Source of the DNA: an uncultured Thermodesulfobacteriota bacterium
GTDB lineage: Bacteria > Desulfobacterota > Desulfarculia > JACQYL01
Length of the DNA: 16,855 nt
Assembly: GCA_964597345.1 (NCBI GenBank)
Contig: CAZQXK010000077.1
Coordinates: 668 to 17,522, forward strand
Direction of reading: 5' to 3'
In this document: positions 2,882 to 16,125 of the stretch, one piece after another
How positions within the stretch are numbered: position 1 is the stretch's first letter
How the letters are laid out: each line of letters begins with the position of its first letter
Notes under the pieces: model-generated
What the model saw: only the letters and a program-made list of their open reading frames with translations
Databases searched by the model: none
What the model was told of the DNA's origin: nothing
Position numbers and translations under genes: made by a program

Positions 2882-4240
2882 ATGAGACGCCTGCATGCCC
2901 GTTTGAAACCCACTACCTGGACGATCCTGGCGTTCGCTGTCCTGATTTCGGTGGGTACGGGCCTTCTGATGCTGCCCGCGGCGTCCGGGGGCCGCCCGCT
3001 GGGGTTTGCGGACGCTCTGTTCACGTCCACTTCCGCTTCCTGCGTCACGGGTCTCGTGGTGGTGGACACGGGAACGGATCTCAGCCGGTTCGGTCAATGG
3101 GTGGTCTTATGCCTCATTCAAGCGGGCGGTTTAGGGATCATGACCCTATCCACGGTGTTCTTACTCCTGACCGGGCGGCGGCTGAGCATGTCCGGCCGGT
3201 ACGTTCTTCTGGACACGTTCACGCACAGCGGAGAAACCGGGCTCCGGGAATTGCTGCTGGACATCGTACGATTCACGTTCCTGCTGGAAGCTTTGGGCGC
3301 CTGCCTGCTGTTTGCGGCGTTTCTGCCCGGGCGTACCGTTGGAGAAGCGGCGTACTATTCCGTGTTCCATTCCGTGAGCGCCTTCTGCAATGCCGGGTTC
3401 AGCCTGTTTTCAACGAGTTTCGAGCAATTCCGCGGGAACTGGATCGTGAATCTGGTTTCGGCCCTGCTGATTGTAGCGGGGGGGTTGGGCTTTCTGGTTC
3501 TTTCGGAACTGCGCCGAAAGAAGCCCTTGGACCGGAGGGCCTGGTCCCGGCTCAGCCTGCATTCCCGGTTGGTGCTCACCACCACGGCCATTCTCCTGTT
3601 GGGGGGAACCGCGTTGATCCTCCTGATGGAATGGCGGAACACCCTGGTTTCCATGCGTTGGCCCGAACGGATCCTGGCCGCCTTCTATCAATCCATGACG
3701 GCGCGGACGGCGGGATTCAACACCCTGCCCACGGGTTCACTGACGGACGAAACGCTTTTCCTGCTGATTCTGCTCATGTTCATCGGTGCTTCACCCGGAT
3801 CCTGCGGTGGAGGAATCAAGACCACCACCTTTGCGACGCTTTTTGTGTTGGGGCGTTCCCGATACCTCGGGTTTCGACGGGCCCAGGTGTTCGCCCGATC
3901 CATTCCGGATGAAAACGTGGGGCGTGCGGCGGGCGTGGTCATGATGAGTTTCGTCCTCGTGGCGGCGGCCACCCTGGGTTTGCTCATGTCCGAATTCGAA
4001 GGAATTCCGCACCCGCAGAACGCCGGGCGTTTCCTGGAGACGCTGTTCGAGGTGGTGAGCGCCTACTGCACCGTGGGGCTGTCCACGGGCATGACGGGGG
4101 ACCTGACCCCCATGGGGAAGTTCCTGCTCAGCGGCGTCATGTTCGTGGGCCGCCTGGGTCCTCTTATGGTGGCCGTGGCCCTGATGCACGACAAGGCGGA
4201 AGACTTCTACTATGCGGAAGAGAGCATCATGATCGGATGA
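2882..4240 (+). CDS. trkH: TrkH/KtrB-family potassium uptake transporter (membrane subunit)
   Basis: 452-aa polytopic membrane protein with TrkH-type repeated pore-loop segments (SCVTGLVVVDTG, FCNAGFSL, GFNTLPTGSLTDET, SPGSCGGGIKTTTF). It is immediately followed by a trkA-type gene. Confidence 0.9.
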   Translation: MRRLHARLKPTTWTILAFAVLISVGTGLLMLPAASGGRPLGFADALFTSTSASCVTGLVVVDTGTDLSRFGQWVVLCLIQAGGLGIMTLSTVFLLLTGRRLSMSGRYVLLDTFTHSGETGLRELLLDIVRFTFLLEALGACLLFAAFLPGRTVGEAAYYSVFHSVSAFCNAGFSLFSTSFEQFRGNWIVNLVSALLIVAGGLGFLVLSELRRKKPLDRRAWSRLSLHSRLVLTTTAILLLGGTALILLMEWRNTLVSMRWPERILAAFYQSMTARTAGFNTLPTGSLTDETLFLLILLMFIGASPGSCGGGIKTTTFATLFVLGRSRYLGFRRAQVFARSIPDENVGRAAGVVMMSFVLVAAATLGLLMSEFEGIPHPQNAGRFLETLFEVVSAYCTVGLSTGMTGDLTPMGKFLLSGVMFVGRLGPLMVAVALMHDKAEDFYYAEESIMIG

Positions 4241-4247
4241 GGGATGT

Positions 4248-4907
4248 ATGAAACAGTTTGCCGTAGTGGGCGTGGGGTTGTTCGGTGCTTATCTGGCCAC
4301 CCACCTGTACGAAAAAGGTCATGAGGTTCTGGCCGTGGATTCCAATCCGGCTCGGGTGCAGGCCGTCAAAGATCGGGTCACCCGGGCCGCCGTGGCCGAC
4401 GGGACGGACCGGGCCGTGCTGGAAGCTCTCGGCGCGGGCGGGATGGATGCCGCGGTGGTGTGTATCGGCGCCGATATGGGCCACTCCATTCTCACCACGC
4501 TCAATCTCAAGGAGATCGGTGTAAAGCGGGTCCTGGCTCGGGCCACCACGGAAGCACACGGCCGCATTCTGAAAAGGATCGGGGCCGACGAGGTCTTCTT
4601 TCCGGAAAAGGACCTGGCGTTGTCGCTGGGAGAGCGGCTTCACAACCCGAATCTGCTGGATTATCTGCCCTTGATCACCGGCTATGGTATTGTGGAGATC
4701 ACACCTCCTGAGGAATTCGCGGGTAAGACCTTGCGGGAACTGGATTTGACCAATCGGTACGGGATCCAGGTCATCGCCGTCAAGAAGACCGTCCCGGAAG
4801 ATGTCCTCATGGCGCCCAAGGCCCAATACCGGGTGGAATCCGGGGACCTGTTGATTCTCTTTGGGCCCGACGACAGCCTGGGCGAGTTACGGGCGCGGGA
4901 GACCTGA
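4248..4907 (+). CDS. trkA: TrkA/KtrA-type K+ transport regulatory protein (NAD-binding TrkA-N plus TrkA-C domains)
   Basis: MKQFAVVGVGLFGAYLATHL Rossmann GxGxxG N-terminus and a C-terminal TrkA-C-like segment (GKTLRELDL...VIAVKK). RBS GAGGGA lies 7 nt upstream and the gene starts 8 nt after the trkH stop. The 219-aa size fits the single N+C KtrA-type rather than the double-length E. coli TrkA. Confidence 0.9.
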   Translation: MKQFAVVGVGLFGAYLATHLYEKGHEVLAVDSNPARVQAVKDRVTRAAVADGTDRAVLEALGAGGMDAAVVCIGADMGHSILTTLNLKEIGVKRVLARATTEAHGRILKRIGADEVFFPEKDLALSLGERLHNPNLLDYLPLITGYGIVEITPPEEFAGKTLRELDLTNRYGIQVIAVKKTVPEDVLMAPKAQYRVESGDLLILFGPDDSLGELRARET

Positions 4908-5257: not shown

Positions 5258-7072
5258 ATGCGGAAACACGGTATCCTTGCGGCGTTGATGGGGCTCCTGG
5301 CGTTCTGGTGTTTTTCGATACCGGGGGCCCGGGGCATGGATGGTCTATTTTTCTACGATAACGTTTTCAGCCTGTCCGGCGGAAACGCCACTCCAATGAA
5401 CGGCCTCTTGGATTCCGGAGCCGTGGACGGCATCTGGAAGGACGCCGGTCCCACCATGAATTTTTATGTGCAGACCTATGCGCCGGGATCGGTTCTGGTG
5501 ATCGCCACGCCGGATCTGGGGACGTTCTACGTATTTCTGGACGACGATGTCTCGGACGGGATAGACGCGTTCGACCTGGCGGGCCGGGGGCATCATTTGA
5601 CCATGACGTTCCTTTCGGAGACCCAGGCTTCGGCCGTCATGACCCCGGCGGGGCTTCCCGCCCAGGAATACTCCATTACCCAGGAATTCGGCATATGGAC
5701 CGAAGTTCTGTATGACGGCATCTGGAAGTCGCCCTCGTGCGAATTTCCCGCGATGAATTACTACGTGCAGACGTACGGCACCGGTTCCGCCATCGCCATC
5801 GTCACCGAAAATCTGGAGGAGATCCGGGTGTTCCTGGAATCCGACATGGCTTCCGGATTCGATGCACCAGAGCTTTCCGGCAAGCCGTACCGCCTGATGT
5901 TGGGTTTCGACGCGCTACCTCCTCCCGACGCCCAGCCCATGGCCCGGTGTTTTGCCGCGCCCTATGGTACGACGGCCGGCGGTCTGACGGGATACGCTTC
6001 CCTGGTCTCCTGGACACCTGATGCATGCGATGTGGATGCCGACACGGTCGAACAATGGCTCGAAAGCATAGGGGGGCCGTTAGACGTGTTGACGGGTATG
6101 CCGAACAGCGTGTTGGACATCATGCTGGCGGTTGTTCAGGGTCTCCTGGGCGGTGGGGAAGAGACCTCCTGCCCTCTGATGACCGTTGCTCCCCCCTTCG
6201 ATCTGTCGTGGTTGCTCTTTCCTCCGTCCGTCATCGATGTTTCGGTGGACTTCGGGTCGGGATGCACGTTCCAGGACGAAACCTATTCCGGTTCCATGAT
6301 CCTTCAGATAACGGGATTCGGCATCGCGTTTGAACCCACCGTCGAAATGACCGGCGCTTTTTCGGCCGCGTTCACCGACTTGAAAGGGGAATCCGCGACC
6401 CATGCGCTTAATGGGACCGTGTCCGGGAATCTTCAGATGGGGCTGGAGGAACTGAGCGAATCCGGGGTCGGAGGGGTCACGGCCCTCATCGACATTACAT
6501 CCTCGGACGTGACTTTAGGCAACCACACCCTCACGGGAGGCAGCACGATTTCGTTTTCTCTGTCCTCCCTGACCGGAGCGGGGCAGGTTTCGGCGCTAAT
6601 AACCTCTTCTTCGTTGGTTTTTGACGGCAAGCCGGTTTCGGGCAGCCTCGGCCTCGACGGTTCGATCGAGGAGATTTCGGAGGAAGAGAGTTACATCGAC
6701 CTGGACCTGACGTTCGACCACTTCGGATCCCCGGATTTGATGTTGAACGGAACGGGAACCGTCCAGGGAACGTTAGGATCCACGAGCACTCTGGATCTAG
6801 CGATGGAAGCCACCGGCACGGATGCCGCCGGATCCAGGCCCATCCAGGTGTACATGACGCTGTTGCAGTCGCCGACTGAGGCGATTCTGAACACCACTCC
6901 CGGTCCGACCAGCATCTGGGGCAATGCCGTCGTGACCATGGAGGACGTTATCCTGGCGACCGCGGAGGTGTGCGATTATCCTACGAGTGGGCTGATTCTG
7001 TTTCAGTGCCCGGGATTGCCGCCGACGTCCGTGACTTTCCAGGGCTGCCATACCCCTCCCGTAATCCAGTAA
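5258..7072 (+). CDS. Secreted protein of unknown function (604 aa) with an N-terminal signal peptide, an internal tandem duplicated ~85-aa domain and a Ser/Thr/Gly-rich C-terminal region
   Basis: RBS AAGGGGGA precedes the ATG. The signal peptide is MRKHGILAALMGLLAFWCFSIPGARG. The two repeat units are DGIWKDAGPTMNFYVQTYAPGSVLVIATPDLGTFYVFLDDDVSDGIDAFDLAG... and DGIWKSPSCEFPAMNYYVQTYGTGSAIAIVTENLEEIRVFLESDMASGFDAPELSG.... I recognise no known family. Confidence 0.7.
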   Translation: MRKHGILAALMGLLAFWCFSIPGARGMDGLFFYDNVFSLSGGNATPMNGLLDSGAVDGIWKDAGPTMNFYVQTYAPGSVLVIATPDLGTFYVFLDDDVSDGIDAFDLAGRGHHLTMTFLSETQASAVMTPAGLPAQEYSITQEFGIWTEVLYDGIWKSPSCEFPAMNYYVQTYGTGSAIAIVTENLEEIRVFLESDMASGFDAPELSGKPYRLMLGFDALPPPDAQPMARCFAAPYGTTAGGLTGYASLVSWTPDACDVDADTVEQWLESIGGPLDVLTGMPNSVLDIMLAVVQGLLGGGEETSCPLMTVAPPFDLSWLLFPPSVIDVSVDFGSGCTFQDETYSGSMILQITGFGIAFEPTVEMTGAFSAAFTDLKGESATHALNGTVSGNLQMGLEELSESGVGGVTALIDITSSDVTLGNHTLTGGSTISFSLSSLTGAGQVSALITSSSLVFDGKPVSGSLGLDGSIEEISEEESYIDLDLTFDHFGSPDLMLNGTGTVQGTLGSTSTLDLAMEATGTDAAGSRPIQVYMTLLQSPTEAILNTTPGPTSIWGNAVVTMEDVILATAEVCDYPTSGLILFQCPGLPPTSVTFQGCHTPPVIQ

Positions 7073-7148: not shown

Positions 7149-8531
7149 TCATTTCACCTTGAGTTCGTCTATCTCGTATTTCTTGAGTTTACGCCAGAGG
7201 CTGGTCCGGGGAATGCCCAAGATCTTGGCGGCGCGAACCTTGTTGTAATTAGTGGCCTCCAGCACCCTGATGATATGCGCTTTTTCCTGCTCCGCCATAC
7301 TGCTCAGGGTATCCTGCGAAATGGAGTCCACCTCCAGTAATCTCAGGTCATCGGGCAGATCGTCCGCTCCAATATGCTTCTTTTCACCCATGGCGACGGC
7401 GCTGCAGATCATGTGGTCCAACTCTCGAACATTGCCCGGAAAGGGATAGCGCATCAGGATGTCCATGGCCTGCCGGGTAAAACCTTCGAAGGCTTTATGA
7501 TACAACTGATTGTAAAAGCGCAGGAAATGCTCGGCCAACAGAGGGATGTCCTGTCTGCGTTCGCGCAACGGCGGGGTGCGGATCACCACCACCTTGAGTC
7601 GAAAAAACAGGTCCTCACGGAAGCGGCCGGCGCGCACCTCATGTTCCAGGTCTTTGTTGGTGGCTGAGATTAGCCGGATATCCAGGGGTACCGGCTTGTT
7701 CCCGCCCACGCGCAGCAGTTTTCTTTCCTGGAGCACGCGAAGTAACTTGACCTGTGTGGCGAGGGCCATTTCGCCGATTTCATCCAGGAAAACCGTGCCG
7801 CCTTGAGCCACCTCCAGCAGCCCGGGCTTGAAGCCGTCGGCGCCGGTAAAGGCCCCTTTCTCGTGTCCGAACAGCTCGTTGGCGATGAGATCTTCCGCAA
7901 AGCCGCCGCAGTTGAATCCTACGAACGGGCTGTTTTTCCGGGGGCTTCCATTATGAATGGCCCGGGCCACCAGTTCCTTGCCTGTACCGCTCTCACCGTG
8001 AATCAGCACGTTGCAATCGATTTTCGCCACCTTATTGATGGCTTTGATCAGTTCCCGAATGTGGGGACTGATGCCCAGAATTTCCCGGGTGTGATCCTTT
8101 TTGAGCAGTTCCTGTTTAAGCTGCTTGTTTTCGGTGAGCAGGGCGATTTTCTCCGCGACCCGTTGCAGGGTGGACAGGATCTTTTCGGGGGTAAGCGGCT
8201 TTTCGATATAATCAAAGGCCCCGAGTTTGATGGCGTTAACCGCATCGTCTATCGCCGCGTAGCCGGTGAACAAAATGACCTCGGTTTCGGGAAAGCGCGA
8301 CTTGATGCGTTCCAGCAGCTCCATACCGGTCAATTGAGGCATGCGGATGTCGCTCATCACGATGTTGAAAGCGCCCGCGGCCATACGCTGGAGCACCTGA
8401 GCGGGATTTTCGAACAGTTCCACGCGGTATCCATGGCGATTCAGGATTCGGCCGATTTGCCGGAGTGCGACGGATTCGTCGTCGACGACGGCTACCTTCA
8501 AGGCGGTGGCGGGCGCCGGGATGGATTTCAC
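7149..8531 (-). CDS. Sigma-54-dependent response regulator / enhancer-binding protein (NtrC family: REC + AAA+ sigma54-activation + Fis-type HTH)
   Basis: A receiver N-terminus (VAVVDDE, D pocket, KP) is followed by GESGTGKELVARAIH (Walker A), the GAFTGA motif, the conserved ...RELDHMICSAVAM segment and a C-terminal HTH (NYNKVRAAKILGIPRTSLWRKLKKY). The GTG start overlaps the upstream kinase stop (GTGA) and has a GGGGGA RBS. Confidence 0.9.
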   Translation of the reverse strand: MKSIPAPATALKVAVVDDESVALRQIGRILNRHGYRVELFENPAQVLQRMAAGAFNIVMSDIRMPQLTGMELLERIKSRFPETEVILFTGYAAIDDAVNAIKLGAFDYIEKPLTPEKILSTLQRVAEKIALLTENKQLKQELLKKDHTREILGISPHIRELIKAINKVAKIDCNVLIHGESGTGKELVARAIHNGSPRKNSPFVGFNCGGFAEDLIANELFGHEKGAFTGADGFKPGLLEVAQGGTVFLDEIGEMALATQVKLLRVLQERKLLRVGGNKPVPLDIRLISATNKDLEHEVRAGRFREDLFFRLKVVVIRTPPLRERRQDIPLLAEHFLRFYNQLYHKAFEGFTRQAMDILMRYPFPGNVRELDHMICSAVAMGEKKHIGADDLPDDLRLLEVDSISQDTLSSMAEQEKAHIIRVLEATNYNKVRAAKILGIPRTSLWRKLKKYEIDELKVK

Positions 8532-10060
8532 GGGCGGTTTTCCCCCATCCAGCGATTATGGTTCGAGTTCGGCGAGGGGTCGTCCACGGCGCCCCGGGGC
8601 AAGGTGACGGTGAATACGCTGCCTTTTCCCGGCCGGCTGGCTACTTCGATGCGTCCGCCGTGATTTCGGATGATTCCGTGAGAAACCGAGAGTCCCAGTC
8701 CGGTTCCTTTGCCTACCGATTTCGTTGTGAAAAAGGGGTCGAATATATGGGGCATGACGTCGGGGGGGATGCCGCAACCGTTGTCTTCGATATGCACCGA
8801 AACCCAACCGTGATCGGCGCTTCTTGCCTTCACCGCTATCCGGCCTCCCTTTTCCACGGCATCCAGCGCGTTCAGCACCAGGTTCAAGAAAACCTGTTTT
8901 AATTGCTGCCGGTCTCCAACAATACGGGGCAGTTGGGGTTCAATGTGCAGTTCAATGGGTACCCCGCGAACCCGTGCCTGGTTGAAGGCCAGTTTGGTGG
9001 TTTCTTCCAGAAGTCGGCCGAGATCCAGGGAATGCATTATGGATTTGTTTTCCCGCGTGAAATCGAGAAGATTGTGGACAATAGCCCGTGAGCGGTCCGT
9101 TTCCTGGATGATGTCCTGGATCATCTGTGTATGTTCTTCCGGAGGCAGATGATCGTATTCCTCGAGCAGCGAATGGGCGGTCAGCATGATGTTGTTCAGT
9201 GGATTGTTCAGTTCGTGAGCCACGCCGGCGGTTAAGATGCCCACGGCCCTGAGTTTGTGGGATTCGATGAGGGACATCTGGCGTCTTTCGAGTTCCTTCA
9301 GCATGCGGTTGATGGCCACCTCCACCGTGGTGAATTCATCCCTGTACTTGCGCACCGGTTTGAGCGGCGTGAAGTCGCCTTTGGCGATGCGCCGGGTCTG
9401 TTGCACGAAGTCTTTCAGCGGCTGCATGAACCGGGTGGACAAGAAGCGGGCCATATACAGCATCAGAAAAAAGAGAAAGACCAGACAGTAAAGGGGCACT
9501 CTCTGTACCAGATCCAACCACCTGGAGACCAGTTCATGCTCTTTGGCGGCCAGAGCCGCCGCGTCCGACACCATTTTCGATCCATAACGCCGCAGGTCCA
9601 CCTCGATTTCGCCCTGAACCCCTGGTGGATTGTCCTCATGTTCAACGAGCCGCTCCAGCTTTTTCAGGCCGGCATGGTAGAGCTCCATGTTGCGGATGGT
9701 TTCTTCCTTTTGCCAGGGCATGGATATCACTTGCAAATCCGCGGCGTTCTCGCTCAGGATCGTTCGGGCTTTCTCCGTACTTTGAAGCGCGTCCTGCAAG
9801 TTGGTTCCATATAGAAAGTAATTTTTCTCCCAGCGACGGGCCTGTTCGATGTTGAACAGGAACTGCTCCCATGCCTGGATGGAACTGATCTTCTTTTCGA
9901 TTCGGTTGATGGCGAACATGGCGGCAGCGGTGATCAGAACGGATAGAATAAAGAAAGTGAAGAAGCCGAGAATGATCTGAAGGCGGAAATTGAAAATGGG
10001 CCTGCCGAGAAGTTCTTCTTCAGGCCCTGTGCGGGATGTTTCGACGGTTGCAAACCACAC
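8528..10060 (-). CDS. Transmembrane sensor histidine kinase (two TM segments with a periplasmic loop, HAMP-like linker, HisKA H-box, HATPase_c)
   Basis: H-box AHELNNPLNNI and N, G1 and G2 boxes (LNLVLNALDA, DNGCGIP, GKGTGLGLS) are present. Hydrophobic segments IILGFFTFFILSVLITAAAMFAI and LYCLVFLFFLMLYMARFL flank a ~150-aa loop. The ORF is open from an ATG at 10216, which would overlap the upstream receiver gene by 150 bp. I place the start at the GTG at 10060, 8 nt after the receiver stop. The start is low confidence. Confidence 0.8.
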   Translation of the reverse strand: MWFATVETSRTGPEEELLGRPIFNFRLQIILGFFTFFILSVLITAAAMFAINRIEKKISSIQAWEQFLFNIEQARRWEKNYFLYGTNLQDALQSTEKARTILSENAADLQVISMPWQKEETIRNMELYHAGLKKLERLVEHEDNPPGVQGEIEVDLRRYGSKMVSDAAALAAKEHELVSRWLDLVQRVPLYCLVFLFFLMLYMARFLSTRFMQPLKDFVQQTRRIAKGDFTPLKPVRKYRDEFTTVEVAINRMLKELERRQMSLIESHKLRAVGILTAGVAHELNNPLNNIMLTAHSLLEEYDHLPPEEHTQMIQDIIQETDRSRAIVHNLLDFTRENKSIMHSLDLGRLLEETTKLAFNQARVRGVPIELHIEPQLPRIVGDRQQLKQVFLNLVLNALDAVEKGGRIAVKARSADHGWVSVHIEDNGCGIPPDVMPHIFDPFFTTKSVGKGTGLGLSVSHGIIRNHGGRIEVASRPGKGSVFTVTLPRGAVDDPSPNSNHNRWMGENRP

Positions 10061-10065
10061 GATCG

Positions 10066-10491
10066 TCAGTGTTCCACTTCGGCGTTGCGCTGATCGCCCG
10101 GCTCGCCCTTTAGCGACGTAAACCCCATATCGTGGGCGGCGTTGGCCACCAGCGATCGGAGATCGCTGGGCCTGAAAGGCTTGGCGATCATATCGAAGGC
10201 GCCTTTTTCCATGCATTCCCTGGCCAGTGCAGCGGTGGCAAAGCCGGTGATGATGATCACCCGAGTGTCCGGACGGGCGGCTTTGGACGCTTCCAGCACC
10301 TGAATGCCGCTTACCTCGGGCATCATAACATCCGTGATGATGATATCAAAGTTCTTTTCCTTGATTCGGTCCAGAGCCTTCAGCGGGTCCTGGTATACCT
10401 CCACGCGGCATCCCAGCTTTTCCAGCCCGCCTTTAAGACGTTGCCCTACAATGGGCTCGTCATCGATCAATAGTATTTCGGGATAGATCAT
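10066..10491 (-). CDS. Single-domain response regulator (CheY-like receiver only)
   Basis: MIYPEILLIDDEP...IIITDVMMPEVSG...IIITG...AKPF has all canonical receiver residues. The ATG at 10491 is preceded by GGGGGACGGAA. The ORF-track start at 10578 lacks an RBS and adds 29 non-conserved aa. Confidence 0.85.
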   Translation of the reverse strand: MIYPEILLIDDEPIVGQRLKGGLEKLGCRVEVYQDPLKALDRIKEKNFDIIITDVMMPEVSGIQVLEASKAARPDTRVIIITGFATAALARECMEKGAFDMIAKPFRPSDLRSLVANAAHDMGFTSLKGEPGDQRNAEVEH

Positions 10492-13678: not shown

Positions 13679-13698
13679 CTTACAAGAAGCGTTCCATT
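13679..13698 (-). promoter_or_regulatory. Weak sigma54-like -24/-12 candidate (TGGAACG-N4-TTGTA) ~75 bp upstream of usp
   Basis: The minus-strand reading AATGGAACGCTTCTTGTAAG has the GG and the spacing of TGGCACG-N4-TTGCW, but GT replaces the conserved GC at -12. A sigma54 activator is encoded in the same gene string. Confidence 0.2.
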
Positions 13699-13703
13699 CA
13701 TTA

Positions 13704-13806
13704 TTTTTCCTTAGCCGTTGAAAAACGCGATCTGCTGTCACGCCAACGGCGTGACGCTTGCGCCTTCGTCATTGCGGCGTACTGGTTGTACGCCTCATTC
13801 CTCAGG
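13704..13806. repeat. Copy 1 of a duplicated intergenic element (core GCCGTTGAAAAACGCGATCTGC...TTGCGGCGTAC-TGGTT-GTACGCCTCATTCCTCAGGATTCGCGCGC), upstream of usp and downstream of the orphan receiver
   Basis: Near-identical to 14470..14560 over both ends. Copy 1 carries an extra perfectly palindromic insertion, GTCACGCC-AACG-GCGTGAC. Weaker similarity continues ~60 bp further, to about 13860. Confidence 0.7.
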
Positions 13807-14004
13807 ATTCGCGCGCTTTGTATGTCGTTTTGCATCGGCCTGCCCGCAATACGGCGTATCAACGGCTGTTGGATGGGGGGTCTTAGCGGCGGGCGGGAAT
13901 GCGGCGGATGGAGTGATGTTTCAATATGATACTGAACGTTCTCGGAGCGTCATTGTTTCGTTTCGGAAGGAAACGGAAGGGGCGCGCCATGGGGAACGGC
14001 TTTC

Positions 14005-14433
14005 TCATTTGAGATGTTTCGAAGGTCTCGAACGGGAGTCTTTGGGCTCAGGGTGTTCCGTTTTGAAACGCCTTTGCTCGAGCGCGTCATGCATACAGAC
14101 CATCAGGGTGTCCAAGTGGATCGGTTTCAGCAAAAAGTGCACGGCCCCGAGCTGAATTCCTTCCAGGCCGGTGTTCACGGAAGTGGCGCCGGTGAGGATG
14201 ATGACCTCCGTCAGCGGTTTGCGTTTCTTGATCTCTTTCAGCACCGAAATACCGTCTATGCCGGGCATGAGAACATCCAATAACACGATGTCGAAATCCA
14301 TTTGTTCCAGCAATTCAAGAGCCGCCAAGCCGTCCGCCGCCGTCGAAACCCGGTAGCCTCGCTTTTCCAGCAGTCGGGTCAGGTACTTGCGGACGTACTC
14401 TTCATCGTCGACGACCATGACTACGGGGTGCAT
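14005..14433 (-). CDS. Orphan single-domain response regulator (CheY-like receiver)
   Basis: MHPVVMVVDDEEYVRKYL...IVLLDVLMPGIDG...ILTG...LKP has a complete receiver signature. RBS AAGGAG lies 6 nt upstream of the ATG. Confidence 0.85.
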   Translation of the reverse strand: MHPVVMVVDDEEYVRKYLTRLLEKRGYRVSTAADGLAALELLEQMDFDIVLLDVLMPGIDGISVLKEIKKRKPLTEVIILTGATSVNTGLEGIQLGAVHFLLKPIHLDTLMVCMHDALEQRRFKTEHPEPKDSRSRPSKHLK

Positions 14434-14469
14434 AGGGACTCCTTGTCGTTGGGCGTTCTTTCATGGCAG

Positions 14470-14560
14470 GCCGTTGAAAAACGCGATCTGCGTCGTTGCG
14501 CTTCATCCTTCGTCCTTGCGGCGTACGGGTTGTACGCCTCATTCCTCAGGATTCGCGCGC
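14470..14560. repeat. Copy 2 of the duplicated intergenic element, 35-125 bp upstream of the orphan receiver start
   Basis: Shares GCCGTTGAAAAACGCGATCTGC and TTGCGGCGTAC-GGGTT-GTACGCCTCATTCCTCAGGATTCGCGCGC with copy 1. The 7-bp inverted repeat GGCGTAC/GTACGCC is preserved with a different loop base. Confidence 0.7.
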
Positions 14561-14782
14561 CTGGCATCTCATCGTTTTTCACCATCCTGCCCGGATAGCT
14601 GTTTCTCAACGGGCTGACAGCGGGCTGATGAAACACTCGATCCGCGGTCGGGCCAACGTCGTGGCTTGAACCACGTTGTCTTGTAGCAGCCGCCCGCAAT
14701 GCTGTCTGACCACGGGCGCCAAGGCCGGTCCCCAGGAGCACGGGAGCGCAGAGCCGAGTGGTGTCGGCCCATGGATGGAAGC

Positions 14783-14876
14783 AGTTTCATACTGAAACAG
14801 ACTTTTCCTCTTCTTACCCGATCTGTTTGAAACAATGCGTGGATATCGTCCCCGGGCTGTGTTTCATACTGAAACA
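14783..14876. promoter_or_regulatory. Array of three palindromic sites (TGTTTCA-TAC-TGAAACA, TGTTT-G-AAACA, TGTTTCA-TAC-TGAAACA) with centres ~39 bp apart. Candidate operator/UAS array.
   Basis: AGTTTCATACTGAAACA lies at 14783-14799, TGTTTGAAACA at 14825-14835 and TGTTTCATACTGAAACA at 14860-14876. The outer two are identical 16-mers and the middle is a deletion variant. They sit in a 790-bp ORF-poor region. Confidence 0.4.
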
Positions 14877-14916
14877 AGAAGTCTCAGCCCTTCTCCGTAT
14901 CGGGTGTTTCGCGGCC

Positions 14917-15245
14917 TATAATAGGTTGTTTGGGTCGCCGAAACAACGCACAATGAATCCTGCCTTCGGTCAAGCAAATATGATGCCGGAATCCGCAAGG
15001 GGGGAGAACTGGACCGAAGGATGGTGAATTTGGGCTCGTGGGCGTAAGTCCGCGGGGGGGACGGAGACGGCCAAAGGAACGGAGTTCGACGACGTAAACG
15101 GATACACTTGGCGGATAAAGAAGAGGGCCGAGAGCGGACCGTCGAAAAGCAGTGAGATGCAGAGCACCCGAATTCCTAATAATAAGGTGTAGATACGGTA
15201 TGTCGAATTGGGTCAAAAAGAGCGGCCACGCCGCAGGCGTGGCCT
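14917..15245 (+). ncRNA. Speculative small RNA: consensus -10 TATAAT at 14917-14922 downstream of the palindrome array, ending at the 15224-15245 hairpin
   Basis: There is no credible ORF in 14434-15267. A perfect TATAAT sits ~40 bp after the last palindrome. Paired segments include TTCGACG (15087-15093) with CGTCGAA (15146-15152), and GTTTCGCGGC...GGTCGCCGAAAC. The hairpin GGCCACGCC-GCAG-GCGTGGCC lies at the 3' end. Strand and ends are uncertain. Confidence 0.2.
15211..15245 (-). terminator. Rho-independent terminator of the small secreted protein gene (hairpin GGCCACGCC-NNNN-GGCGTGGCC followed on the minus strand by GCTCTTTTTG)
   Basis: A perfect 9-bp GC stem sits 24 nt past the TGA of the 15268..15636 gene. 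A T5 tract follows on the minus strand. Confidence 0.6.
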
Positions 15246-15926
15246 GGGTCACGTTCTTTGCCAGCTGTCAGGGGACTCTTTGTACTGTTGCTTTACATGT
15301 TGAGGGTTCTTCTGGAATATGATTTATCACAAATATTTTCTTACCCTTGATCATACCATAGGAGAACGTGCCATCGTCGCATGTTATAGAAATATTAGTT
15401 CCATCTATTACGCCTTGACATATTTGACCAGGATTCGGCTTAATATTTAAGGCTCTTATAAAGTACCCTCTTTGTTCGATTTCTACCATAAAATATTCAC
15501 CATCTTCAGGTGGGTCAGCAAAAGCATAGTGACTGCAATACATGGTACCTTCCCATGTACCGGTAAGATCGAATGCGGAAACACTTGCCGAAGTTAGGAA
15601 GATACAAAATACCAGTGAAAAGTACGCTCTTTTCATTGTGCCTACCTCCTTCTTTGGGTTCTTGTATACTGCACTCCGCAGTGGCGAAGTAGCTGAGACA
15701 AACCAATCAGGTTATGCACCTCACTTTTATTGTAGGCTGTCGAATGAAGAAGTACTTATACTGTTAGTAACTCAGCTGAAAGAATTCATGCAATAACCGC
15801 GGTGAGATATGGTGAAGGTGAGAAATCCGCATAATCCATACGGAATGCTGTATCATACTTGGGATATAGATAGAATAAAAATCAGATAACTATAACATCT
15901 CTAGTCTACTCCCGAGAACGAACTAA
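15226..15926. mobile_element. Low-GC (~40%) ~700-bp islet bounded by imperfect direct repeats GGTCAAAAAGAGC (15211-15223) and GGTCAAGAAAAAAGAGC (15927-15943). Candidate horizontally acquired single-gene cassette.
   Basis: There is an abrupt composition change at both ends. The islet carries one gene with its own strong SD and terminator. The 13/17-nt flanking direct repeats share GGTCAA and AAAAGAGC. No integrase or transposase is present. Confidence 0.35.
15268..15636 (-). CDS. Small secreted protein (122 aa; signal peptide, 4 Cys in the mature part), function unknown. It sits in a low-GC islet.
   Basis: A strong RBS (AAGGAGGT) lies 7 nt upstream of the ATG. The signal peptide is MKRAYFSLVFCIFLTSASVSA. 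Mature sequence: DLTGTWEGTMYCSHYAF...ICQG...ITCDD...STCKA. Codon usage and GC (~40%) differ sharply from neighbouring genes (~63%). Confidence 0.7.
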   Translation of the reverse strand: MKRAYFSLVFCIFLTSASVSAFDLTGTWEGTMYCSHYAFADPPEDGEYFMVEIEQRGYFIRALNIKPNPGQICQGVIDGTNISITCDDGTFSYGMIKGKKIFVINHIPEEPSTCKATVQRVP

Positions 15927-16125
15927 GGTCAAGAAAAAAGAGCAGAAGCGTTTTCAGGTCCCTTTTTCGGGCCAGTGAAGAGATGCGATGTGCGGGGTCG
16001 CGCTTTACTTTTCGTCACTGCGGCGCATCGTGTCTACGCCGCATTCCCCAGGAATTGGGCACGTTGCAGTTCATCGCTTTTTAGCAACCTGCCGGCTGCC
16101 CAGTTTTTCAACCACGGACCGCAAA

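Follow-up and report, generated by a model that had tools for sequence, protein, structure and literature searches.

A predicted sigma-54 control region with candidate activator sites downstream of the promoter at a two-component-system operon of an uncultured Thermodesulfobacteriota bacterium

The window analysed here, a stretch of 16,855 nucleotides from an uncultured Thermodesulfobacteriota bacterium (assembly GCA_964597345.1, contig CAZQXK010000077.1, positions 668 to 17,522 of the forward strand), contains about 830 bp (14434-15267) between the ATG of a receiver gene on the minus strand (14433) and the stop of the gene at 15268-15636. A preliminary description, made from the letters alone, had proposed this stretch as an undescribed regulatory or non-coding RNA locus. 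Our analysis indicates that it is probably the control region (promoter and leader) of a two-component-system operon, lengthened by a terminator, a rearrangement scar and the insertion of a hairpin repeat. In this model, to which we assign a probability of about 0.72 on the basis of sequence comparison, a sigma-54 promoter would be served by activator sites lying downstream of it and the operon would be autoregulated. The region is a composite of terminator, sigma-54 promoter, three palindromes and inserted repeat, and its functional strand is the minus strand. The speculative non-coding RNA locus is thereby replaced by a testable regulatory map, consisting of a promoter, the motif TGTTTCA-N3-TGAAACA and a candidate regulator. 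The features discussed below are collected in Table 1.

Table 1. Features of the control region and its operon, in window positions.
Feature	Position	Strand	Remarks
Predicted sigma-54 (-24/-12) promoter, CGGCATcatatTTGCT = CGGCAT-N5-TTGCT	14973..14988	minus, towards receiver gene	motif scan and conservation
Candidate activator site 1, perfect, TGTTTCAtacTGAAACA (TGTTTCA-N3-TGAAACA)	14860-14876		centre about +95 of predicted start
Candidate activator site 2, short variant, weak or half site, TGTTTGAAACA	14824-14834		centre about +134; aligns with the middle site of L002
Candidate activator site 3, one mismatch, AGTTTCAtacTGAAACA (AGTTTCA-N3-TGAAACA)	14783-14799		centre about +172
TATAAT, centre of the 11-bp palindrome CCTATAATAGG (14915-14925), inside the leader	14917..14922	plus	not conserved in relatives
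Repeat copy A, about 130-150 nt, in the 5' leader of the receiver gene	14455..14605	minus	long imperfect hairpin
Receiver gene, single-domain, 142 aa	14005-14433	minus	Pfam Response_reg E = 6e-32; orthologues found
Second-cluster (B) site TGTTTCAatatGATACT, two mismatches	13917-13933		between receiver gene and Usp gene
Conserved -24/-12-type element TGGAACgcttcTTGTA	13681-13696	minus	ahead of Usp/CitMHS genes
HAMP histidine kinase	8528-10216	minus	penultimate operon gene, next to the activator
NtrC-type enhancer-binding protein, REC-AAA+-HTH_8, GAFTGA intact	7149-8531	minus	Sigma54_activat E = 4e-68
Non-conserved spacer, pyrimidine-rich on the minus strand	14989..15213		similar only to the identical contigs L001 and L095
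Intrinsic terminator of gene 15268-15636	15214..15244	minus	terminator scan

A protein search with the receiver returned about 35 orthologues at 60-78% identity, and a metagenome scan with a transporter alignment gave about 40 further loci; the fetched loci, about 135 in all, are referred to by L-numbers. Two contigs, L001 from ENA and the 253-kb L095 from JGI, encode an identical receiver protein, and the genome locus closest to the window comes from a Desulfatitalea metagenome-assembled genome (L002; receiver 66% identity).

A sigma-54 promoter is recognised by GG at -24 and GC at -12 in the canonical spacing TGGCAC-N5-TTGCW, facing a gene. The element at 14988..14973 has this form, its two mismatches both lying outside the GG and GC, and with G and C set at -13/-12 the predicted start falls near 14962, which places the receiver ATG at +530 behind a leader of 529 nt. 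When the minus strand of the window is aligned with L002, the sigma-54-type element stands in register (cGGCATcatatTTGCt against aGGCACcatccTTGCt) within an otherwise diverged spacer, as does the set of three palindromes. The window and each of the seven distinct close relatives have a sigma-54-like element on the receiver strand, 104-115 bp ahead of the first palindrome; in 593 kb of unrelated loci the background of such matches is 0.17 per kb and strand. Furthermore, a 14-mer core, GGCATCATATTTGC, is identical in L082, L084, L090-L092 and L096/L097, and is confined to this promoter position in all fetched DNA. A second sigma-54 promoter was sought in clade 1 between the palindromes and the receiver ATG and none was found; a divergent one, sought in the same clade, gave a marginal match in L086 only. 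Between the promoter and the sites, no convincing match to the IHF consensus was seen by eye (it was not computed).

The three palindromes, described earlier as spaced by about 39 bp, indeed have centres 38 and 39 bp apart. The window holds four matches to the motif, a number reached by 0 of 200 dinucleotide shuffles, and matches with up to two mismatches number only two in the 593 kb of unrelated loci. In 211 kb of orthologous loci the core motif GTTTCR-N3-YGAAAC has 44 copies, and the unrelated loci have none; no copy of the same half-sites with a different spacer length between 0 and 8 nt is present in the orthologous loci, so that the spacer is strictly 3 nt. Matches with up to two mismatches are nearly confined to two places, cluster A, upstream of the first receiver gene, and cluster B, in the spacer between the receiver and Usp genes. 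The spacing of the outer sites, 76-77 bp, is kept in five of seven lineages, and one more has a weak match only at that place. The preliminary description had proposed a conservation search, and the palindromes recur at the same operon in every lineage examined.

Enhancers of sigma-54 promoters consist of dyad sites, usually at least two, within about 80-200 bp of the promoter, and the three sites of the window have their centres 95-172 bp from the predicted start. In the window and clade 1, their position is downstream of the promoter, not upstream as is usual for such enhancers. Among 83 distinct site instances, non-consensus stem positions comprise 112 broken pairs, 25 of the G-U type and seven doubly compensated, a count in which visible double changes are limited by the selection of instances for similarity to the consensus. 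Judged by their sequence, the palindromes behave as DNA sites, not as RNA hairpins. A dyad of two 7-nt arms around three nucleotides is the architecture of NtrC sites, and we know of no characterised activator with the half-site GTTTCA. A literature search for the motif returned only unrelated papers and work on parS, and the motif is not mentioned in the Desulfovibrio sigma-54 regulome paper (PMC4641369). Motif and regulon appear to be undescribed.

The receiver gene, preceded by a GGAG ribosome-binding site (14442..14439), is the first of a seven-gene operon on the minus strand, which continues with a Usp gene, a CitMHS/TrkA_C transporter, a cytidylate-kinase-like gene, a second receiver, the HAMP histidine kinase and the NtrC-type activator. 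The gene order from receiver to histidine kinase is the same in all loci fetched via receiver orthologues, and the activator closes the operon wherever the sequence reaches that far (the window and two loci, from both clades). The motif is present at this operon in every locus checked. The activator provides the enhancer-binding protein with a GAFTGA-bearing AAA+ domain that a sigma-54 promoter calls for; comparison of three orthologues (window and both clades) shows its HTH region to be almost unchanged, and it is the only DNA-binding protein consistently encoded with the motif. This co-occurrence and the conservation of the HTH region make it the best candidate for the protein that binds the palindromes. 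The earlier suggestion that the array is an operator or enhancer cluster targeted by a locus-encoded regulator therefore gains support, both from the co-occurrence with the operon and from the distance of about 100-160 bp to a conserved -24/-12 promoter. The mapped operon itself is uncharacterised and widely conserved in Desulfobacterales-like sulfate reducers.

The position of the sites relative to the promoter differs between lineages. In most of them, including the window, they follow the predicted start by about 95-170 nt; in clade 2 (L090-L092, L096/L097) the identical promoter core has a single palindrome 160-162 bp upstream of it. The usual enhancer position at sigma-54 promoters is 100-150 bp upstream (PMC7057263). 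The same promoter is thus accompanied by the same motif at enhancer distance on either side, as a looping activator predicts, and this arrangement fits an RNA element or a pure roadblock poorly.

The layout of the divergent side may explain the downstream position. In clade 1 a TetR - receiver - TauE - hypothetical - PPDK-like operon diverges from the receiver operon. In the low-GC clade, whose receiver is about 50% identical, a PPDK-like gene (PPDK_N and PEP-utilizers) is itself divergent from the operon, and the opposite strand carries a conserved TGGCAY-N5-TTGAT for which the palindromes are in the classic upstream position (L105 2383-2398, minus strand; also in L107, L108, L109, L112, L119 and L124). 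This suggests that in the low-GC clade one enhancer is common to two divergent sigma-54-type promoters. L118/L137 have GGGCAT-N5-TTGCA 166 bp before a single palindrome, and since both these loci and the low-GC clade show the order of promoter, then sites, then receiver gene, this order is old. Its probable basis is a single enhancer common to divergent units, with the downstream position inherited from a control region that was bidirectional. The window has lost the divergent unit at this place, with no TetR remnant left, and a low-GC segment with a 122-aa gene and the spacer 14989-15213 stand there instead.

The control region would then work as follows. Transcription of the upstream gene would end at the terminator (15244-15214), and sigma-54 RNA polymerase would sit on CGGCAT-N5-TTGCT as a closed complex. 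The adjacent kinase would phosphorylate the operon's own NtrC-type activator, whose dimers would occupy the three 7-N3-7 palindromes centred at about +95, +134 and +172. The activator would oligomerise, loop back over about 100-180 bp and open the promoter with ATP, after which polymerase would pass through the sites and the 529-nt leader with its hairpin repeat into the operon, resulting in positive autoregulation.

Several points weigh against this model. The sigma-54-like match of the window taken by itself is not significant, and the case for the promoter therefore rests on its conservation; the sigma-54 gene, rpoN, is not within the window. It is atypical for such sites to lie within a transcribed leader, where they might just as well form a roadblock, although such a roadblock or repressor role may coexist with activation. 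In the low-GC clade the receiver-strand element, AGCAT-N5-TTGCA with an A at -25, is a weaker match (about 103 bp before the first palindrome), and the sites there may primarily serve the divergent promoter. Finally, what we observe is a set of sequence elements, how they are conserved and positioned, and that they co-occur with the activator gene; from this we infer the identity of the binder, the transcription start, activation from downstream and the direction of regulation. We offer more tentatively, as a possibility on the doubtful side, that an enhancer within the transcribed leader is a conserved, ancestral layout of this regulon, found in at least three lineages (receivers about 50% identical), where the activator would open the promoter from downstream and then hinder the released polymerase. 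If true, this would be a built-in circuit of activation followed by roadblock, giving a pulse or a ceiling, and in relatives a single enhancer would serve two divergent sigma-54 promoters.

The position of the sites at about +95 to +172, within the transcribed region in most lineages, together with the lack of any palindrome upstream of the promoter in the window, could also mean that they are purely negative elements, at which elongation from the sigma-54 promoter is stopped by the bound activator or by some other dimeric repressor, so that autoregulation is negative and activation comes from elsewhere. We regard this as unlikely: the clade 2 motif, 160 bp upstream of the same core, would be unable to block elongation, the second cluster precedes another -24/-12 element by about 80-110 bp, and a sigma-54 promoter needs an enhancer-bound activator, for which no other candidate site is conserved. 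The repressor might instead be the TetR-family protein encoded divergently from the receiver gene in close relatives (TetR_N gene in L002, L082-L088 and L093). TetR operators are typically palindromes of 15-17 bp. However, the window has no TetR gene or remnant nearby, and clade 2, L089 and the low-GC clade (checked at L105) have no TetR gene beside the receiver gene and yet keep the motif, which moreover occurs in the receiver-Usp spacer and, in L094, after the activator gene. Because the motif persists where no TetR gene is near, we reject the TetR operator, which we consider very unlikely. The sites would be transcribed if the sigma-54 promoter is used, and one site of L091 falls within a perfect 13-bp extended hairpin, so that a role as RNA hairpins of the 5' leader, for an RNA-binding regulator or for processing, has to be weighed as well. 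Against it stand the mostly uncompensated mismatches (112 broken against seven double changes), the conservation of half-site sequence, not pairing, across lineages with receivers only about 50% identical, the strict 3-nt spacer, the cluster-A site of clade 2 upstream of the promoter, and the middle site TGTTTGAAACA, which is unable to form a stable hairpin loop; such a role is highly improbable. Centromere sites for ParB or a ParB-like protein are, of all these readings, the one that we find most improbable. The parS consensus TGTTNCACGTGAAACA is a 16-mer with a 2-nt CG centre, and its half-sites, TGTTTCA and TGAAACA, are identical to the 7-nt half-sites at 14783-14876 in the window. The centre of the present motif, in contrast, is variable and A/T-rich, and all 44 of the 44 motif copies have it at 3 nt, none at 2 nt; in many genomes the sites gather at one operon, and they do not track the origin region. 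With up to three mismatches parS (TGTTNCA-CG-TGAAACA) has no match in the window, and it was rejected on spacing. A motif with a 3-nt centre is nevertheless a possible source of false parS calls in gap-tolerant motif scans.

A further reading, that of the preliminary description, is a regulated small RNA of about 300 nt on the plus strand, starting after the TATAAT at 14917 and ending at 15224-15244, with the palindromes as operators. About 40 bp separate the TATAAT from the last palindrome, and the far end carries a GC hairpin; in Desulfovibrio, sigma-54-dependent non-coding RNAs adjoining activator genes have been reported (PMC4641369), which makes the idea reasonable, although the evidence here favours the other strand and the operon. 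The box is present where described, but it has no -35 element and the promoter scan finds no sigma-70-type promoter on the plus strand. The 9-bp GC hairpin at the end of the region is equally real, with its T-run on the minus strand only. The long-range complementary segments noted earlier exist as well, as 7-12-mers of a kind found by the dozen. The scan of the whole window with Rfam models at gathering thresholds gave nothing, and that of 14300-15400 at E-values up to 5 nothing credible. The fold of 14925-15250 on the plus strand has z = -1.75 even with the terminator hairpin included, and the sequence at 14925-15220 has no counterpart in any relative, in contrast to the conserved palindromes and minus-strand promoter. 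Neither a covariance-model match nor a conserved structure with its own promoter and terminator, the marks of a small RNA family, was found, and with no conservation, Rfam match, unusual fold or plus-strand promoter to support it the small RNA is hardly credible.

The preferred model, a sigma-54 promoter with downstream activator sites, is a system of a known, ordinary kind in which the downstream enhancer layout is uncommon. It resembles the upstream activating sequences of the NtrC family (glnAp2 with NtrC, dctA with DctD) in its -24/-12 promoter, in its several 17-bp 7-N3-7 dyads about 100-170 bp from that promoter, and in its predicted activator of REC-AAA+(GAFTGA)-HTH_8 architecture, encoded with a kinase in the regulated operon, which implies autoregulation. 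It differs from them in that the sites, here and in most relatives, lie downstream of the predicted start, in the leader, and not at the usual 100-150 bp upstream. To our knowledge, few cases of sigma-54 enhancers downstream of the promoter are documented, and the present locus adds a natural, evolutionarily conserved example of a predicted one. The known precedent is in Caulobacter, whose flagellar sigma-54 promoters are reportedly activated from 3' or downstream ftr enhancers in divergent units (titles cited in PMC3096577). Going by these titles, the predicted activation from downstream and a divergent control region common to two units are features shared with the FlbD/ftr system of Caulobacter crescentus (flaN-flbG, fljK; PMC3096577). 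The regulon differs, comprising transporter, Usp and two-component genes as against flagellar ones, as does the sequence of the site, and the window lacks the divergent partner unit.

A second regulatory module, with one or two palindromes, lies inside the operon, with equivalents in L002, L082-L089 and L101-L124. Sites occur at the equivalent receiver-Usp place in nine of the ten orthologous loci scanned, and cluster B lies about 80-110 bp upstream of its -24/-12-type element. This element reads TGGAAC-N5-TTG(A/T)A in clade 1 (13696..13681 in the window) and mostly TGGCAT-N5-TTGAT in the low-GC clade; its -12 part is TTGA or TTGT, not the canonical TTGC. In the window, copy B of the hairpin repeat (13714-13846) is inserted between cluster B and this element. 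In L091 (clade 2) the post-receiver site (about 5413-5443) is the one that forms part of a perfect 13-bp extended inverted repeat, AGTAAAGTGTTTC-gattt-GAAACACTTTACT; it is not followed by a -24/-12 element, and its role there may differ.

The earlier statement that nearly 800 bp between the two genes hold no plausible open reading frame is borne out, as the six-frame open reading frames have no significant Pfam match. The possibility of a frameshifted pseudogene, raised at the same time, was checked by Pfam searches of these frames and by tblastn with proteins of relatives, and no such pseudogene was found; tblastn of the relatives' neighbour proteins (TetR, receiver, TauE and others) against 14434-15267 gave no match. 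The composition of the stretch accounts for its length. At the end away from the receiver gene, the gene 15268-15636 on the minus strand, a low-GC open reading frame of 122 aa with no Pfam match, is followed by the stem-loop GGCCACGCC-TGC-GGCGTGGCC (15244..15224) and the T-run GCTCTTTTTG. The stem has 9 bp, eight of them GC pairs, and it is followed by T5; because the T-run is on the minus strand and the hairpin lies 24 nt past the stop of this gene, the hairpin is its intrinsic terminator. The 122-aa open reading frame has a hydrophobic, signal-peptide-like N-terminal segment and is held in a low-GC island of the window (15200-16000; 0.41-0.43, against about 0.55-0.60 nearby). That this island sits where relatives carry the divergent TetR...PPDK operon points to local replacement or rearrangement. 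The adjoining spacer, in which no TetR remnant and no Pfam or Rfam match were found, is probably a scar of the rearrangement that replaced that operon.

The repeat in the leader makes up a further part. In self-comparison, copy A (14470-14593) matches two other copies at 13714-13846 and 15970-16093, in the same orientation and at 72-77% identity; the last of these sits upstream of the 122-aa gene. The fold of 14455-14605 has -62 kcal/mol and z = -6.0. Since a three-copy repeat covers them, about 150 bp of the seemingly empty region are an inserted REP/MITE-like element. The element is multicopy, intergenic and forms a stable hairpin, as dispersed intergenic hairpin repeats do; it resembles REP/BIME or MITE repeats also in being co-oriented with genes and in the length of its hairpin, and differs from the described families in that it has no match in Rfam and was seen in three copies. 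Among the fetched loci the repeat is restricted to the genome of the window, including the identical contigs L001 and L095. Repeat insertion together with local rearrangement can thus inflate an intergenic region into a seemingly gene-sized "dark" locus. A partial fourth fragment of the repeat may lie at 14629-14668.

Other short conserved elements were seen in relatives. Clade 1 has a conserved (T)ATATTGCCAC between the TetR start and the sigma-54 promoter (L002 at about 2382-2392, L084 at about 4655-4667, L086 at about 4709-4719, L087 at about 4728-4740), which is not present in the window, and a related ATATTGCA occurs in the low-GC clade; clade 1 also has a conserved TATATTGCCAC element near the TetR start. 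In L094 a copy of the motif, CGTTTCAtatTGAAACA (16892-16908), stands directly after the activator gene, about 230 bp upstream of a second Na_sulph_symp/CitMHS transporter gene, and is followed after 13 nt by a GGGCATaatatTGC-like element; this transporter gene may be an extra member of the regulon in clade 2. Elsewhere in the window, and unrelated to the control region, the potassium-uptake genes TrkH (452 aa) and TrkA (219 aa) lie on the plus strand at 2882-4907, upstream of the open reading frame 5258-7072, which converges on the end of the operon.

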